This document shows positions 44-5,878 of a stretch of DNA of 5,878 nt, piece after piece; the first letter of the stretch is position 1, and each line of letters opens with the position of its first letter. The notes under the pieces are model-generated. The model was not told the origin of the DNA. It searched no databases and saw only the letters and a list, made by a program, of their open reading frames with translations. Both the position numbers and the translations under genes were made by a program. The DNA is from a virus. Taxonomy: Duplodnaviria > Heunggongvirae > Uroviricota > Caudoviricetes. Location: the IMG/VR virus record IMGVR_UViG_2531839473_000007; one strand, 5' to 3'.

Positions 44-1930
44 GTGTACGGGGAGATACCGTTTAACCCGAACACCCGTGAGGTGACGACGGCGTGCATC
101 AGCCTGTTCCGCTACCAGGCGCAGGTGCGGCCCTCGCAGGTGCGTTCAAAAGACCACACGTTTAAGGTGCCGGACTGGCCGGGTATTTACATTGAGGATG
201 CTGAAAACCTCAACGGGCAACTGAAGCAGTACAAAATCCTGGACTGGCCGGGGCGCTACAAGGACGAGCAGCATGGTCAGGACTTTACCCGCTACCGGCT
301 GGAAGGGCTGCGTAACAGTGCTGAAACCGCCACAGGTATCAGTAACTCCCCGGCGCTGTGGCCGGGACGGCGGTTCACCCTGACGGGGCATCCGGTACAG
401 GGAGCGAACCCGAACCGTGAGTGGCAGGTGGTGAGCAGCACGCTGACGGGGAGCCAGCCGCAGGCGCTGCACGGCAGTCACGGTGAAGGAACGACGCTGA
501 GTAACCAGTTTGAGGTGATACCGGCAGACAGGACGTGGCGTCACGCGCCGCTGCCGAAGCCGAAGGTGGACGGCCCGCAGAGTGCCATCGTGACCGGGCC
601 GAAGGGCGAGGAGATATTCTGCGACGAACATGGCCGGGTACGGGTGAAGTTTCACTGGGACCGTTATCACGGTATGACGGAGGAGAGTTCATGCTGGATA
701 CGGGTGTCGCAGGCGTGGGCGGGAGCGGGGTTCGGTAATCTGGCGATACCGCGTGTGGGTCAGGAAGTGATAGTGGACTTTCTGAACGGGGACCCGGACC
801 AGCCCATCGTCACGGGACGCACCTACCATGAGGACAACCGTTCACCGGGGGATTTACCGGGCACGAAGACGCAGATGACGATACGGTCGAAGACCTATAA
901 AGGAAGCGGATTTAACGAGCTGCGGTTTGAAGACGCCACGGGCGGTGAGCAGGTGTATATCCATGTGCAGAAGAACATGGACACGGAGGTGCTTCACGAC
1001 CGGACGACGGACGTGAAGCATGACCACACGGAGACCATCGGGAACAACCAGAAAATCACGGTGGGGCTGGGCCAGACGGTGACGGTGGGGAAAGAGAATG
1101 CCGGAGGGCATGACCAGACCATCACGGTGGCCCATGACCGGAGCATCACGGTGCGCAACGACCAGACGCTGAAGGTGACGAACGACCGGCGGGTGAACGT
1201 CAGCCACGATGACGGTCTGTACGTCAGAAACGACCGAAAGGTGACGGTGGAAGGGAAGCAGGAGCACAAAACGACAGGAAACCACATCAGCCTGGTGGAG
1301 GGAAAACACAGCCTGGAGGTGAAAGGCGACCTGGCGAGGAAGATTACCGGCGCGCTGGGAATGAAGGTCCGGGATGAAATCGTACTGGAGAGCGGCGGTA
1401 AAATCACCCTGAAGGTGGGCGGCTCGTTCGTTGTCGTTCATTCTGGTGGCGTGGATATTGCCGGGCCGAAGATAAACCTGAACGGCGGGGGCAGTGCGGG
1501 GACACCGGTGGGGACGATGCAGCCGGGTGTACTGGCGGCGCTGGCGGATGACGGGGGTGATGAAGAAGGCGAAGATGACGGGCAGGGCAATGGCGACTCC
1601 GGTGATGGAGAGGGGGGGGCCGGAGATGATGATAGTGGAAACGATTCGGACAATTCAGATGATGATGAAAAGGAAATTGTTTCTATTAGTTGGTCCTATG
1701 GTAACAATCGGACAAAAGTTCAGGATACATCCAGACACTATGTAGACCTCAATCTCCATGTGCAGACAAAAGGGTATAGTCCTGGGGAAAGTGTGTCCGT
1801 CGAAATAAAATATGATGACTTTGATGGTATGGAAAGATCTCTTGCTGTTAGCGGCACGGTAGATGAATCAGGTGAGATGGTTGTTGAGCAGGTTTTATCT
1901 GGGGCAGACGTCTGTACTTTAGATGAGTAG
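44..1930 (+). CDS. vgrG: T6SS spike protein VgrG (vgrG1), 3' portion with C-terminal extension. The open frame starts at GTG 44 after a TGA at 26-28, but the vgrG reading continues upstream in another frame (apparent 1-bp deletion near nt 30-32), so this is a frameshifted gene or a sequencing error.
   Basis: Translation carries VgrG core motifs (FKVPDWPGIYIEDAENLNGQ, YKDEQHGQDFTRYRLEGLRNSAETATG, FHWDRYHG, gp5-like beta-helix repeats such as VKHDHTETIGNNQKITVGLGQTVTVG). It aligns residue-by-residue with the vgrG2 N-terminal region at 5509-5878. Stop TAG at 1928-1930. Confidence 0.9.
   Translation: MYGEIPFNPNTREVTTACISLFRYQAQVRPSQVRSKDHTFKVPDWPGIYIEDAENLNGQLKQYKILDWPGRYKDEQHGQDFTRYRLEGLRNSAETATGISNSPALWPGRRFTLTGHPVQGANPNREWQVVSSTLTGSQPQALHGSHGEGTTLSNQFEVIPADRTWRHAPLPKPKVDGPQSAIVTGPKGEEIFCDEHGRVRVKFHWDRYHGMTEESSCWIRVSQAWAGAGFGNLAIPRVGQEVIVDFLNGDPDQPIVTGRTYHEDNRSPGDLPGTKTQMTIRSKTYKGSGFNELRFEDATGGEQVYIHVQKNMDTEVLHDRTTDVKHDHTETIGNNQKITVGLGQTVTVGKENAGGHDQTITVAHDRSITVRNDQTLKVTNDRRVNVSHDDGLYVRNDRKVTVEGKQEHKTTGNHISLVEGKHSLEVKGDLARKITGALGMKVRDEIVLESGGKITLKVGGSFVVVHSGGVDIAGPKINLNGGGSAGTPVGTMQPGVLAALADDGGDEEGEDDGQGNGDSGDGEGGAGDDDSGNDSDNSDDDEKEIVSISWSYGNNRTKVQDTSRHYVDLNLHVQTKGYSPGESVSVEIKYDDFDGMERSLAVSGTVDESGEMVVEQVLSGADVCTLDE
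1547..1675 (+). other. Acidic low-complexity linker inside vgrG1 (D/E/G/S/N-rich, about 43 codons) between the VgrG core and the C-terminal domain; contains a G8 homopolymer.
   Basis: Translation ADDGGDEEGEDDGQGNGDSGDGEGGAGDDDSGNDSDNSDDDEK. Nucleotide composition switches from GC-rich to AT-rich within this segment. Confidence 0.8.
1612..1619 (+). repeat. G8 homopolymeric tract inside the vgrG1 coding sequence (codons GAG GGG GGG GCC).
   Basis: Eight consecutive G read directly at 1612-1619. Confidence 0.9.
1676..1927 (+). other. VgrG1 C-terminal extension domain of unknown function (about 84 aa, AT-rich); candidate cargo or adaptor-binding module.
   Basis: Translation KEIVSISWSYGNNRTKVQDTSRHYVDLNLHVQTKGYSPGESVSVEIKYDDFDGMERSLAVSGTVDESGEMVVEQVLSGADVCTLDE follows the gp5-like repeats and acidic linker. 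Its composition matches the downstream AT-rich cassette, not the vgrG core. Confidence 0.5.
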
Positions 1931-2095
1931 TTGTTTGGTAATATATGGCTGATGTTGTTGAATAAGAATTATATGATTAGCTGATCATTTAGATGACAGA
2001 ATACATACTACTATGTTGTATTCACTTAAAGTCTGGCGATTGTTTACATGACAGTTTTACGTGATACTTATTCGTTGAATCAGTAAGGGCTTATT

Positions 2096-2236
2096 ATGGC
2101 AAAAAAAGTTACAGCTAGTGCGGGAAAACAAAAATCGACTGTTAATGTAAAAAGACCTGCATGGTCTGATGTATATGAAGGATATCCAAAAGTTAATGGA
2201 GGTACTGAAATTGAGAGTGATTTGCCTATGAAATAA
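2096..2236 (+). other. N-terminal segment (46 codons) of the tae4-like effector gene, ending at an in-frame TAA (2234-2236) and continuing in the same frame as ORF 2237-2662.
   Basis: ATG at 2096 with Shine-Dalgarno TAAGGG at 2084-2089 (6-nt spacer). Translation MAKKVTASAGKQKSTVNVKRPAWSDVYEGYPKVNGGTEIESDLPMK. Same frame as the downstream catalytic ORF, separated only by TAA. Confidence 0.5.
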
Positions 2237-2662
2237 TTGTTTACATCAATTTTTGGGCCTGATTATGATACTACGCAATTCAATAATGGTTGTGCTACAA
2301 GAGTATCTCTTGGATTACTTTCTGAAGGATTAAAAAGAGTGGGGGAAAGAGATATTGTTATTAGTGAAAAATCTCATATCCATTATGGGAAATCAATAGA
2401 GCCCGGAGCTGCAAGATTAAAAGATTTTCTGATAAAAATATGGGGAAATGCAGATTATGTCATTAAATATCCTCTAAGCTTTGACGATGTAAGCTCGGTA
2501 TTAAATGATAAAAAAGGTGTTTATATAATGGTTTATAAAAGACCTGCGGATCATGGTGGTGCTACGGGACATGCTACACTATGGACTGGTAACAGAGCCA
2601 TTGGCGGTAATGACCATGCTGATTCCAGTGCTTTTGCAATCTATTTTTGGGAATTGAAATAA
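2237..2662 (+). CDS. Tae4-like T6SS peptidoglycan amidase effector (papain-like Cys-His hydrolase), catalytic portion. Likely a pseudogene or disrupted gene, because the natural start and RBS lie upstream at 2096 beyond an in-frame TAA.
   Basis: Motifs NNGCATRVSLGL (candidate catalytic Cys) and GHATLWTGN (candidate catalytic His), followed by GGNDHAD, fit the Tae4-family pattern as recalled. Size and AT-rich composition suit an effector cassette. The only in-frame start before the Cys is TTG at 2237, with no RBS. Confidence 0.55.
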   Translation: MFTSIFGPDYDTTQFNNGCATRVSLGLLSEGLKRVGERDIVISEKSHIHYGKSIEPGAARLKDFLIKIWGNADYVIKYPLSFDDVSSVLNDKKGVYIMVYKRPADHGGATGHATLWTGNRAIGGNDHADSSAFAIYFWELK

Positions 2663-3096
2663 TGAAAGCTATATTTTTTATATTCTGTATTTTTTTTATG
2701 GGAAATTCATTGTTATATTCAGAGGCTAAAGCCAGTGAATCAGAAAGTACTCTGGATGATTATAAAATATTTACACTCGCTAAATGCATTACCAGTAATT
2801 ATGAAAAAATGGGGGTTGATTTTACAAAACTACCATTGAAAGATAACACTATGGGATTTATTGATATTGATGCTGGACTCGCTTTTTATCGAAATAAGGA
2901 TAGTGTTTTAGCATCTTTCATTAATAAAAAAACAGGGGGTTTTTACAGGCCAAAACAAACTAGTGGTGATTTAGCATCTTCAAATATGGTTATATACGAC
3001 TGCGTAAATTTTTATCATTCAAAAGAGTTGGGTGTATTTCTAAAAAAAATCATTCATGAGAGGACTGTCGAAATTGAGAGAAACGCACTCGAATAG
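2662..3096 (+). CDS. Periplasmic immunity protein candidate (Tai4-like by synteny) with an N-terminal signal peptide.
   Basis: ATG at 2662 overlaps the upstream stop (TAATG). Signal peptide MKAIFFIFCIFFMGNSLLYSEAKA, then a hydrophilic mature protein of about 120 aa. Sits immediately downstream of the amidase effector, as in effector-immunity pairs. The ORF-track start (TTG 2647) is less plausible than ATG 2662. Confidence 0.5.
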   Translation: MKAIFFIFCIFFMGNSLLYSEAKASESESTLDDYKIFTLAKCITSNYEKMGVDFTKLPLKDNTMGFIDIDAGLAFYRNKDSVLASFINKKTGGFYRPKQTSGDLASSNMVIYDCVNFYHSKELGVFLKKIIHERTVEIERNALE

Positions 3097-3271
3097 ATAA
3101 TTCTGGCGGTGACTTTGTTTTTTTTGGATGCAATGCAATATATAAAAATTGTATTTGTTCGAAAATAATATAAAATATCCGAGAAAAATATCATTCGCTA
3201 TTAAAGTGTCTAAGCGTTTTTACATAAGTACTTTACATCGTTTAGTTTAAAAACGCGGCTATCAATAAATG

Positions 3272-3331: not shown

Positions 3332-3616
3332 ATGCCCACAGCAGCCAGACTCAGCGATAAAGGCACCCAGCATGACGGTTATTATGAGACCGCCATTATT
3401 GCAGGCTCCTCCTCCGTCTTTATTGATGGTATGCCCGCCGCCCGTCAGGGCGATCCGCTGACACCGCATTCCAAACCCGACCATCCCCCTCACCCCCGTA
3501 AAATCGCAGGCGGCTCTGCCACTGTCTTTATTGACGGTAAACCTGCCGCCAGAACCGGCGATGCCATTGACTGTGGCGGCGTGGTTATCGGTGGCGGCAC
3601 GGTAAATATAGGCTGA
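3332..3616 (+). CDS. Stand-alone PAAR-domain protein (T6SS spike-sharpening tip), 94 aa.
   Basis: Three PAAR-type motifs (TAARLSD, PAARQGD, PAARTGD) with G/I-rich beta-strand spacers. Shine-Dalgarno AAGGAAA 6 nt before ATG 3332. Stop TGA at 3614-3616. The ORF-track upstream ATG at 3269 lacks an RBS, and the PAAR domain begins at Met 3332. Confidence 0.9.
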   Translation: MPTAARLSDKGTQHDGYYETAIIAGSSSVFIDGMPAARQGDPLTPHSKPDHPPHPRKIAGGSATVFIDGKPAARTGDAIDCGGVVIGGGTVNIG

Positions 3617-3705
3617 TTAATTATCAGGGAGGCTGTATGCCCTCAGAAGGATTACGTTTCACGCTGTCGGTGGCCGGCATTGTGGAGATGGCGACGGCGG
3701 TGGTC
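3612..3705 (+). repeat. Direct repeat copy 1 (about 94 bp, about 90 percent identical to 4898-4987): TGATTAAT junction, Shine-Dalgarno GGGAGG, and the first 23 codons of vgrG.
   Basis: Alignment by eye: gctgattaat..cagggagg..atgccctcagaaggattacgtttcacgctgtcggtggccggcattgtggagatggcgacggcggtggt versus the vgrG2 5' region. Confidence 0.9.
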
Positions 3706-4398
3706 GTAGAGGACGGCATATTTGGAAAAAATACATACGACGCAGTGAAAATATTTCAGCGGTATAATGGGTTAAATGATGATGGCATCGTAGGGCCACA
3801 AACCTGGCGGAAATTGGGTGTTCCTGAACTTTTAACGCGAAGTTCATCAGGCTCTCCCGCCAGCCCTTCTTCGGGGCCATCCCGGAGCCCTTCTGCTGAT
3901 TCAAATGGTACTGTTGCTGAGACTGGTGATGGATTCTGTTTCCCATTCCCTGCACTTCCTGCGAGATCGTGGACAAACGGCGGTCGTCAATTTGGGGCGT
4001 CACGCAGTGGGGGCCGCAGACATGCCGGTTGTGATTTGATATTCCCCCGAGGAACGCTTATTTATGCTGTTGCTGATGGCATATTAGTTCAGCCCCCATA
4101 TCCATTTTACGAAGGTACTTCTGCTGTAGAAATTAGACATGGCAACCTTCTCCTTCGCTATGGTGAAATTATTAATGGGTCATACGTAGGTGGGCAAACG
4201 GTTCAAAAAGGTCAGGTTATTGCTAAGGTAGGAAGGCTGCATTCGGGTTCATCTATGTTGCATCTGGAGATTTATACGAATGCGACCTTATCGGGTGACC
4301 TTACAGATCGCAACAGAGCGCCTTATCAAAGACGTTCTGATGTGACAGATCCTGCCCCATATCTGGATATCTGGAAAAATAACCTGCCTACCCTCTGA
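3637..4398 (+). CDS. Chimeric putative T6SS effector: vgrG-derived N-terminus (23 aa), then a partial peptidoglycan-binding (PG_binding_1-like) motif, a Ser/Pro-rich linker and an M23/LytM-like peptidase domain.
   Basis: N-terminus MPSEGLRFTLSVAGIVEMATAVV matches the vgrG2 start MSSEGLRFTLSVDGIVEMATAVV. DGIFGKNTYDAVKIFQRYNGLNDDGIVGPQTWRKLG matches the second half of the PG_binding_1 consensus. M23-like blocks: HAGCD (HxxxD), GTLIYAVADGILV, VEIRHGNLLLRYGEI, GQTVQKGQVIAKVG, SMLHLEIY, VTDPAPYL. Shine-Dalgarno GGGAGG precedes ATG 3637. Confidence 0.75.
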   Translation: MPSEGLRFTLSVAGIVEMATAVVVEDGIFGKNTYDAVKIFQRYNGLNDDGIVGPQTWRKLGVPELLTRSSSGSPASPSSGPSRSPSADSNGTVAETGDGFCFPFPALPARSWTNGGRQFGASRSGGRRHAGCDLIFPRGTLIYAVADGILVQPPYPFYEGTSAVEIRHGNLLLRYGEIINGSYVGGQTVQKGQVIAKVGRLHSGSSMLHLEIYTNATLSGDLTDRNRAPYQRRSDVTDPAPYLDIWKNNLPTL

Positions 4399-4417: not shown

Positions 4418-4882
4418 ATGTTCAAAAAGATAATACTATTTTTAACGGTGATATCTTCGAGTTTTGTTGTTTGTCTTGCGGCTGATTCAGAAAAGATATT
4501 ATCAGTAGATCCTGTTGTGAATAATTTTGGCGTTGATGAAGTCGTAGGGTTGCCTCATCCTGTTTGTACTTTGAGTCTGGCTGAAAATAATGAGAAACAT
4601 CTTTATAATTATGTTGAGGGCGGTATCTGCCCTGTGGGCGGTGAAAGTTGTCCTTATTCAGCCGTCATAAAACTGAATGGCAAGATGGCGATATTAAAAC
4701 AGATATCGACAAATAAAAATATCAGTTTTTTTAAGAATGATGAGGTATCGATTATCACAACACAAAGCCCAGTTAAAGGAGCTGTGGTGGATGAAGAGGG
4801 TGGTGATGTGAATGCCGTTATTGTAATCAAAACAAAAAATAGCGAAATAAAACTTAATATGTCCGGGTACTGTGGTATTTAA
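4418..4882 (+). CDS. Putative periplasmic immunity protein for the M23-like effector (secreted, Cys-containing, no family recognised).
   Basis: Signal peptide MFKKIILFLTVISSSFVVCLA followed by ADSEK. Four Cys in the mature part (C50, C71, C78, C152). Shine-Dalgarno AAGGA 9 nt before ATG 4418. AT-rich. Immediately downstream of the effector. Confidence 0.5.
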   Translation: MFKKIILFLTVISSSFVVCLAADSEKILSVDPVVNNFGVDEVVGLPHPVCTLSLAENNEKHLYNYVEGGICPVGGESCPYSAVIKLNGKMAILKQISTNKNISFFKNDEVSIITTQSPVKGAVVDEEGGDVNAVIVIKTKNSEIKLNMSGYCGI

Positions 4883-4897
4883 AACCGGGCTATTATC

Positions 4898-4987
4898 GCT
4901 GATTAATCAAGGGAGGTCATATGTCCTCAGAAGGATTACGTTTCACGCTGTCGGTGGACGGTATTGTGGAGATGGCGACGGCAGTGG
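4898..4987 (+). repeat. Direct repeat copy 2: the authentic vgrG2 translation-initiation region and first 23 codons.
   Basis: Same alignment as copy 1; gctgattaat at 4898-4907, GGGAGG at 4911-4916, ATG at 4921. Confidence 0.9.
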
Positions 4988-5878
4988 TGAGCTTCCGTCT
5001 GTACCAGCACCACTGCACACCGTTCATCCTGGATGTGGATATCGCCAGCGGACTGTCTGACCTGACGGCGGAGGATTTTCTGGAGAAAAGCGCGGTGCTG
5101 ACGGTCTGGCAGGGCGACACTGCACAGCGTTACGTCAGCGGTATCGTGACGGAGGTGCAGCTCGGTGAGAACAACGACTGGCAGATGCGTTATTCCCTGA
5201 GCATCAGCCCGCCGCTGTGGCGGGCAGGGTTACGGCAGAACTTCCGTATCTTCCAGCAGCAGGACATCGGGACGATATCAGCACAGCTTCTTGAAGAGAA
5301 CGGGGTGACGGCGTGGATGCCGCTGTTCTATGAGGCGCACCCGGCGCGGGAGTTCTGCGTGCAGTACGGGGAGAGCGACCTGGCGTTCCTGACCCGGCTG
5401 TGGGCGGAGGAAGGTATCTTCTTTTATGAGCGCTGCAGTCAGGAAGGGCCGGAACAGAAGCTGGCGGTGTGTGATGACGTGGCGGGGCTGACGGGAATGG
5501 GGGCGCTGGCGTTTAACCCGGACACGACGACCGGGGGAACGACGGAGTACATCAGCGAGTTTCGTTACCGTGCGCAGATAAGCGTGGCGTCGGTGGAGAC
5601 GCAGGATTATACGTTCAAAACGCCGGGGTGGCCGGGGTACTACAGCCATGCCGGGGAGAGCCTGAACGGGCAGGGAACGCAGTACGAGATATTTGATTAT
5701 CCGGGGCGTTTCAAGGATGAGCAGCACGGCCAGGACTTTGCGCGTTACCAGACGGAAGGGTGGCGGAACGGGGCGGAGACGGCGAGCGGGGTGTGTAACA
5801 CGGCGCGACTGTGGCCGGGAACGCGGTTCCGGCTGACGGGCCATCCCTCAGGGACGCTGAACCGGGAATGGCAGGTTG
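4921..5878 (+). CDS. vgrG: T6SS spike protein VgrG (vgrG2), N-terminal about 319 codons; 3' end beyond the window.
   Basis: Open frame from ATG 4921 to the window end with no stop (translated by hand). Begins MSSEGLRFTLSVDGIVEMATAVVSFRLYQ and continues with VgrG core motifs (TFKTPGWPGYY, FKDEQHGQDFARYQTEGWRNGAETASG). Strong Shine-Dalgarno AAGGGAGG. Confidence 0.92.
   Translation, partial: MSSEGLRFTLSVDGIVEMATAVVSFRLYQHHCTPFILDVDIASGLSDLTAEDFLEKSAVLTVWQGDTAQRYVSGIVTEVQLGENNDWQMRYSLSISPPLWRAGLRQNFRIFQQQDIGTISAQLLEENGVTAWMPLFYEAHPAREFCVQYGESDLAFLTRLWAEEGIFFYERCSQEGPEQKLAVCDDVAGLTGMGALAFNPDTTTGGTTEYISEFRYRAQISVASVETQDYTFKTPGWPGYYSHAGESLNGQGTQYEIFDYPGRFKDEQHGQDFARYQTEGWRNGAETASGVCNTARLWPGTRFRLTGHPSGTLNREWQV

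Follow-up and report, generated by a model that had tools for sequence, protein, structure and literature searches.

The gene under study lies on a stretch of 5,878 nucleotides from the viral record IMGVR_UViG_2531839473_000007 (hereafter the window) and encodes a protein of 253 amino acids (WP_001355449.1). We assign this protein to the M23 fold, in which it would fail two defining catalytic features, and to a distinct and large subfamily of predicted interbacterial toxins with Glu and Met in the active site. M23 peptidases are zinc enzymes in whose mechanism two histidines next to the catalytic water are central, and they are being developed as antibacterials. In the window protein, the three predicted zinc ligands are all present and the positions of both histidines are taken by a glutamate (E177) and a methionine (M207). 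We consider it fairly probable, at about 0.62, that the domain hydrolyses peptidoglycan as a zinc enzyme, with this glutamate as its base, is delivered by PAAR and VgrG of a type VI secretion system (T6SS) and is neutralised by a periplasmic protein encoded directly downstream (4418-4882).

An inspection of the letters by eye, made without database searches (the sequence-only reading), had already proposed an M23 domain with altered catalytic positions in a T6SS setting. Three points go beyond it: the substitution defines a subfamily, an arginine (R123) aligns with the oxyanion position, and the 5' end of the gene is a vgrG fragment.

Active-site residues and the Glu/Met subfamily

The Pfam model Peptidase_M23 (PF01551) matches residues 128-216 of the protein (nt 4018-4284) with E=4.3e-13 and 49.7 bits, where the gathering cut-off is 28.7. 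A score that exceeds the curated threshold, together with the M23 beta-sheet fold, places the protein in the M23 family, and the match falls within the range 3950-4398 (residues 105-253) in which the sequence-only reading had located the domain. The active-site residues were mapped by four alignments, i.e., phmmer with the whole protein against PDB sequences (9gy1/StM23), phmmer with the domain alone against LytM and ShyA, a 67-sequence family profile against StM23, zoocin A, ShyA and 2hsi, and the coordinates of the Pfam hidden Markov model (HMM). All four give the same residue mapping (Table 1). The alignment made by eye had taken HAGCD for the HxxxD metal motif, had seen the second His of the HxH block retained, and had placed Glu and Met at the first and second catalytic His positions, respectively; the four alignments agree with it at every position.

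H129, D133 and H209 are the predicted zinc ligands. In the HxH motif the first His, which is catalytic, is replaced by M207, and the second, a zinc ligand, is kept as H209. The other catalytic His of the family (LytM His260, lysostaphin His329, LasA His81) is found about 30 residues before HxH, where E177 stands in every alignment. Apart from the two ligands, H168 is the only conserved histidine; it aligns with the non-catalytic His of the 'xHxxG' motif in canonical enzymes, and the canonical catalytic His has therefore not been relocated elsewhere in the protein. The alignment to PF01551, which the sequence-only reading had proposed as a check, likewise gives an M23 match with no canonical catalytic His elsewhere. 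Six positions before the first zinc His, R123 aligns with LytM Tyr204 in the LytM alignment. According to a review of M23 enzymes, both histidines (LytM His260 and His291) are placed beside the catalytic water, and the oxyanion is stabilised by LytM Tyr204 or, as proposed for EnpA, by Arg21 (PMC9662197). By analogy with EnpA, R123 may thus have an oxyanion role.

The Glu/Met site is best described as a trait of a subfamily and not as local decay. A first homologue search recovered relatives down to approximately 30% identity in Enterobacteria, Azoarcus and Microcystis, and in an earlier set of 99 homologues E177 was conserved in 97% and M207 in 96%. A profile of the domain alone was then compared with 1.84 billion cluster representatives (50%-identity clusters), yielding 58,728 matches at E<=0.001, which span the M23 family at large, 2,964 matches at E<=1e-10 and 692 at E<=1e-30. 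Conservation was counted in 143 new representatives among the best-scoring profile matches. All 143 have R123, R127, H129, D133, Y175, E177, M207 and E211; H209 is present in 142, R232, R233 and D235 in 140-142, and H129, H168 and H209 are the only conserved histidines. Since E177 and M207 are both kept in 143/143, chance is excluded as an explanation of the substitution. The signature derived from these representatives reads R-x3-R-x-H-x3-D ... Y-x-E ... M-L-H-x-E-x-[YF] ... R-R-x-D-x3-P, and the window protein carries every residue of it. Judged from the profile matches, the subfamily comprises about 700 clusters (50% identity) in Proteobacteria, Myxococcota, Cyanobacteria and Acidobacteria. 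It is absent from 50,697 phage records and has no solved structure; among PDB entries, a canonical enzyme matches the family profile best (E=4.4e-17). The ratio of nonsynonymous to synonymous substitution rates (dN/dS) of the M23 domain is 0.15-0.25 in comparison with Pseudocitrobacter and Citrobacter, indicating that the Enterobacterial genes are under purifying selection.

The genomic context was scanned with a 13-sequence query and one genome per species, which gave 80 loci; because the scan patterns contained M-L-H, these loci inform on context only and not on the frequency of the motif. They stem from Enterobacteriaceae, Polyangiaceae, Azoarcus, Competibacter, Microcystis, Cyanobium, Duganella/Massilia, Acinetobacter, Psychromonas, Photobacterium, Roseomonas-like Alphaproteobacteria, Acidobacteria and others. 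A VgrG gene adjoins the M23 gene in Enterobacteria, Polyangiaceae, Duganella/Massilia, Sulfuricurvum and Acinetobacter. In a Sulfuricurvum metagenome-assembled genome (MAG; 1670-6385 of its locus) and in protein P0320, the Glu/Met M23 domain forms the extreme C-terminus of a PAAR-like/RHS protein. This RHS-borne domain lies about 300 residues past DPxGL, the motif closing the Rhs shell, and is followed by a 173-amino-acid gene with a signal peptide. Fusion partners in 76 long representatives include PG_binding_1 (18), SH3_3 (13), SLT (9), Pesticin-type lysozyme (6), LysM (6), Amidase_2 (2) and RHS repeats (2), and combinations such as M15_4 + SLT + PG_binding_1 + M23 are found too. In addition, Glu/Met M23 domains of 150-180 amino acids exist as stand-alone proteins.

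The gene 3' of the M23 gene is usually small and tightly linked. A signal-peptide-like N-terminus is present in 39 of 52 downstream open reading frames (ORFs) of 100-260 amino acids and a lipobox-like motif in 12 of the 52, and these partners belong to many unrelated families. Taken together, the VgrG neighbours, Rhs tips, domain fusions and signal-peptide partners correspond to the pattern of a polymorphic toxin domain that would act in the periplasm and be matched by cognate immunity proteins; the Glu/Met clade would thus have been recruited repeatedly as an interbacterial toxin. In cyanobacteria (Microcystis) and some gammaproteobacterial MAGs, the domain is located at the N-terminus of proteins of 520-620 amino acids with SH3_3 repeats and SLT. 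No VgrG gene occurs within approximately 6 kb on either side of those cyanobacterial and gammaproteobacterial loci, and the subfamily is therefore not restricted to the T6SS.

Mode of action and alternatives

In the mechanism that we favour, the effector would load onto the PAAR/VgrG spike encoded beside its gene and be injected into the periplasm of Gram-negative neighbours, where the M23 domain would hydrolyse peptidoglycan, most likely its peptide cross-links. Zinc held by H129, D133 and H209 would polarise the peptide bond. From the role of E177 onward, we infer the steps: E177 would act as the general base that deprotonates the zinc-bound attacking water, R123 would stabilise the oxyanion or tetrahedral intermediate as proposed for Arg21 of EnpA, M207 would merely pack under the metal site, and the R232-R233-x-D235 stretch would assist substrate binding. 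In the producer cell, the 154-amino-acid periplasmic protein would block the enzyme. His-Asp-His zinc sites with a carboxylate base are known, with Glu181 in VanX and Asp in some M15 lysins. These enzymes belong to M15 families of a different topology, and the Glu of VanX stands three residues before the last His ligand, whereas E177 of the window protein is placed on the neighbouring strand. Enzymes sharing the His-Asp-His zinc site have reportedly been compared by Bochtler et al. in 2004 under the name 'LAS' group.

Several points weigh against an active enzyme of this kind. The searchable literature yields no assayed member of the Glu/Met subfamily, and a search for M23 enzymes with Glu in the site returned nothing relevant. 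Tse4 of Acinetobacter baumannii, the only assayed T6SS M23 effector found, has a canonical site and therefore offers no precedent for a Glu/Met site. LECT2, which is inactive, has retained the zinc ligands but is missing a catalytic His (PMC9662197); retention of zinc alone is therefore no proof of catalysis. The carboxylate of E177 may face the metal-bound water or may instead serve as a fourth zinc ligand. Finally, the PG_binding_1 domain of the window copy is truncated, and the M23 gene and the gene downstream of it are present in only one of 5,426 complete E. coli genomes.

The alternative that survives best, which we nevertheless regard as doubtful, is an M23 domain that binds zinc and is catalytically dead, so that any toxicity would come from binding and not from cutting. 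Such a domain might sequester peptidoglycan stems or imitate EnvC/NlpD and free prey amidases from autoinhibition. Both residues that activate water in M23 enzymes are indeed gone (alignments; PMC9662197), LECT2 illustrates that a zinc-retaining M23 fold can be non-enzymatic (PMC9662197), the model superposes on the LytM domains of EnvC and DipM equally well as on active enzymes, and there is a weak NCBIfam match to the amidase activator ActS (E=0.0067). However, the known degenerate LytM factors are without zinc ligands (PMC9662197), whereas the ligands here are conserved throughout the representatives, with a single departure at H209. An invariant carboxylate at the base position combined with an Arg at the oxyanion position is hard to explain in a binding module, and no other toxin module accompanies the domain at Rhs tips or in the stand-alone proteins, which have immunity-like partners. 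The sequence-only reading had put a non-canonical active site and a degenerate fold side by side. This either/or is supported, and the evidence leans to the non-canonical site because of the conserved ligands together with Glu/Met, the use at Rhs tips and as VgrG cargo, the immunity-like partners and the purifying selection.

It is improbable, though somewhat less so than the readings that follow, that the domain is an active zinc hydrolase with another bond specificity than the annotated DD-endopeptidase, i.e., a MurNAc-L-Ala amidase (MurNAc, N-acetylmuramic acid), a carboxypeptidase or an LD-endopeptidase. The groove residues R123, R232, R233 and D235 fall outside the canonical M23 signature, and M23 enzymes already cover several specificities (PMC9662197). 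Bond preference cannot be addressed from sequence. To our knowledge, the M23 peptidoglycan hydrolases characterised so far all cleave inside peptide stems or bridges, which speaks against this reading. VT1, an effector of an E. coli vgrG island, has been described as a novel amidase outside Tae1-4 (PMC6730261) and may be a parallel case in favour of this reading.

Very unlikely in our view is a zinc-stabilised EnvC/NlpD mimic that would activate AmiA/B/C or other autolysins of the prey, so that the wall is digested by the prey itself with no catalysis by the effector. If true, it would represent a T6SS toxin acting through deregulation instead of catalysis.

Either outcome would be informative. 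If the clade is active as we propose, it constitutes a natural experiment on water activation in the M23 fold and may be a source of enzymes that differ in pH optimum, bond preference or inhibitor sensitivity, and rules that call M23 domains without HxH 'degenerate' misclassify a whole toxin family. If it is inactive, a new explanation is needed for why a toxin domain should keep an invariant zinc site.

The effector gene and its vgrG island

The window copy of the effector has an unusual N-terminus. The protein starts with MPSEGLRFTLSVAGIVEMATAVV, which is a VgrG N-terminus (MPSEGLRFTL), and the vgrG fragment is joined in frame to the M23 gene at residue 23; the segment it resembles, 4898-4988, is the start of the next vgrG. 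Intact relatives of 260 amino acids, which occur in E. coli, Pseudocitrobacter, Citrobacter and Salmonella, start with M..TLWMF..G.DV.KLQQLLN, i.e., helix 1 of PG_binding_1; at the fusion site they have about 260 bp, versus 17 bp in the window. In the AF2 model, residues 1-20 have a predicted local distance difference test (pLDDT) score of 34-52. We conclude from this comparison that in the window copy helix 1 of PG_binding_1 is replaced by an in-frame 5' fragment of vgrG and that the catalytic domain is intact; as a consequence of the lost helix, the peptidoglycan-binding module is probably impaired. That the window copy is a decaying remnant, a recombination product beside a broken Tae4 gene that no longer works as an effector, is the least probable of the readings considered: the 22 codons taken from vgrG, the missing helix, the split Tae4 gene, the rarity of the cassette among complete E. 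coli genomes and the insertion sequence (IS) elements in the same island of E. coli MFDS1022581 would fit it, yet the reading frame, a strong ribosome-binding site and the immunity gene are intact, the M23 domain is 99% identical to the intact 260-amino-acid form with every invariant residue present, and the exact 253-amino-acid protein is recorded on 59 contigs of a large protein collection.

Table 1. Features of the window; positions are counted from its first nucleotide.
Feature	Position	Strand	Basis
vgrG (tssI), 3' part	44..1930	+	Pfam Phage_GPD, Phage_base_V, Gp5_trimer_C; tssI annotation in NZ_CP169399.1
Tae4-family amidase effector gene, split	2096..2662	+	Pfam Tae4, E=9.3e-14, whole model covered
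Small gene after Tae4, hydrophobic N-terminus	2662..3096	+	ORF list; hypothetical protein in NZ_CP169399.1
PAAR spike-tip gene	3332..3616	+	Pfam PAAR_motif, E=2e-20; RefSeq 'type VI secretion system PAAR protein'
Copy of vgrG 5' end: GGGAGG ribosome-binding site, ATG at 3637, first 22 codons	3612..3704	+	89% identical to 4898-4988
Effector gene, 253 amino acids, WP_001355449.1	3637..4398	+	Partial PG_binding_1, low-complexity linker and M23 domain
PG_binding_1 domain without first helix	3709..3816	+	Residues 25-60 = model positions 22-57 of 57; Pfam E=1.7e-12
Full M23 (LytM-type) domain, residues 97-253	3925..4395	+	Includes subfamily-specific C-terminal R232-R233-x-D235 and D238-P239
R123, over LytM Tyr204	4003..4005	+	LytM alignment; 143/143 representatives
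H129-A-G-C-D133, predicted HxxxD zinc-ligand motif	4021..4035	+	'RRHAGCD' over canonical 'xxHxGxD'; H129 codon 4021-4023, D133 codon 4033-4035
E177, at LytM His260-type catalytic His position	4165..4167	+	'RYGEI' over 'vYgHv / rYlHl / mfCHl' (Y-x-H)
M207-L-H209, at HxH	4255..4263	+	'SMLHLE' over 'pHLHfE'; M207 codon 4255-4257, H209 codon 4261-4263
Putative immunity gene, 154 amino acids	4418..4882	+	ORF; Sec-type signal peptide (MFKKIILFLTVISSSFVVCLA/ADS), four conserved Cys, all-beta prediction
Next vgrG, 5' part, extends past the right end of the window	4921..5878	+	Annotation in NZ_CP169399.1; sequence comparison

By its closest match, the window is a piece of a T6SS vgrG island of E. coli. 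Over its full length it matches E. coli MFDS1022581 (NZ_CP169399.1) with 97% identity, where the order is tssI/VgrG, a 46-amino-acid hypothetical protein, a Tae4-family amidase, a hypothetical protein, PAAR, a 'peptidoglycan DD-metalloendopeptidase family protein' (WP_001355449.1), a hypothetical protein and a second tssI. The T6SS setting named by the sequence-only reading is borne out by the vgrG upstream, the PAAR gene 20 nt before the M23 gene, the signal-peptide gene 19 nt after it and the next vgrG from 4921 onward. This corresponds to the layout of a T6SS periplasmic cargo effector, in which PAAR/vgrG genes are adjacent, the effector itself has no signal peptide and a small exported protein is encoded downstream; this arrangement recurs in other lineages.

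The putative immunity gene is kept 3' of the M23 gene in Enterobacteria and has weak homology to the downstream gene of Azoarcus (E=1e-5), and its family is limited to these two groups. Its product matches no Pfam or NCBIfam family and no known fold, has only 10 close homologues and gives a low-confidence model (pLDDT 62). The close homologues are labelled 'adhesin' in the sources, with no domain or fold evidence behind this label.

Upstream, the first vgrG extends past the left end of the window, and its listed ORF start is internal. Residues ~500-628 of this VgrG (window ~1540-1930) comprise a long acidic linker rich in Gly, Asp, Glu and Ser, followed by a C-terminal domain of about 80 residues that has no Pfam match and may serve as an extension for binding cargo. 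An in-frame TAA at 2234-2236 divides the Tae4 gene into a 46-amino-acid ORF and a 141-amino-acid ORF with a TTG start in the same frame; the former, upstream of the stop, contains …RPAWSDVYEGYPKV…, and RefSeq annotates two separate coding sequences. Such an interruption would be consistent with a premature stop or with truncation of the effector. The product of the small gene that follows has no Pfam or NCBIfam match and, from its place after the amidase gene, is probably the immunity partner of Tae4.

The G+C content is approximately 60% in the vgrG genes (1-1500 and 5000-5878) versus 30-39% over the Tae4 cassette (1750-3250 region), and 38-53% in the PAAR/M23/immunity cassette. These shifts suggest that the cargo modules were imported separately. 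In E. coli MFDS1022581 (12521-14485 and 3495-4723 of the matching locus), IS21 and IS2 elements interrupt the same island, and a vgrG further downstream is truncated, which indicates that the vgrG array is still rearranging.

Comparison with known M23 proteins and effectors

Compared with the M23B enzymes LytM, lysostaphin, StM23, ShyA and MepM, the window protein has Glu and Met in place of the histidines that correspond to His260 and His291 of LytM, an Arg in place of the oxyanion Tyr204, and an additional invariant R-R-x-D stretch ahead of D-P. EnpA, an M23 D,L-endopeptidase of an Enterococcus prophage, resembles it in the proposed oxyanion Arg21, the possible counterpart of R123, but keeps both catalytic histidines and is no T6SS effector. 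EnvC, NlpD, DipM, Csd2, SpoIIQ and LECT2 share with the window protein an M23 fold with an incomplete catalytic set, and LECT2 is similar also in that its three zinc ligands are kept and a catalytic His is absent. The bacterial degenerate LytM factors have lost the zinc ligands and function within complexes for division or cell shape, whereas the window protein has all three, and its family has Glu at the base position and is found in toxin-immunity cassettes. The window gene itself lies in a T6SS vgrG island and not in a division locus.

Among T6SS effectors, Tse4 of A. baumannii is an endopeptidase that converts D44 dimers to M4 monomers (bioRxiv 10.1101/2021.03.04.433973). Tse4, or Tpe4(AB), is like the window protein a cargo effector that combines an M23 domain with a peptidoglycan-binding module. 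It differs in its length of 812 amino acids and its canonical M23 site IHQGVD...YAHN...SHLHFE (PMC6833914 supplement), and it is bifunctional, a lytic transglycosylase as well as an endopeptidase, with a LysM and lysozyme-like architecture, domains which a Pfam scan does not find in the 253-amino-acid protein. With its canonical H/H site, Tse4 was rejected as proof that a Glu/Met site is active. SARI_02625 of S. arizonae was set aside as a precedent, since its architecture is different and only its endolysin domain was tested; the DUF3289-M23 protein of E. bugandensis, Tse2 of A. veronii and Tke of K. pneumoniae likewise have different architectures, and none of them addresses the Glu/Met site. 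The E. coli and Salmonella T6SS effector papers examined make no mention of the window protein, and a search for homologues of the Acinetobacter M23 domain gave short proteins only and no named effectors.

The closest counterpart is found in A. baumannii. Effector group 24 (Tpe24) was listed there as a predicted peptidoglycan hydrolase only (Lewis et al. 2019, PMC6833914), and no later mention of Tpe24 was found in the literature searched; the Glu/Met type thus appears to have been catalogued already, its altered catalytic set not being remarked on. Tpe24(AB), a protein of 798 amino acids, has the same Glu/Met M23 domain, with the motifs KRKHAGCD...RYGEV...SMMLHLEMY...YQRRSDLIDP (supplement, PMC6833914). 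It differs from the window protein in its long N-terminal region, the absence of PG_binding_1 and its genus. In A. baumannii 2021CK-01407, whose record of 4.09 Mb is chromosome-sized though filed in PLSDB as a plasmid, the order is vgrG, a 178-amino-acid gene, the 798-amino-acid Tpe24-type effector (5069-7465 of the locus) and a 161-amino-acid gene. Like the window gene, Tpe24(AB) is thus encoded after a vgrG and before a small gene, and it is predicted to be a peptidoglycan hydrolase.

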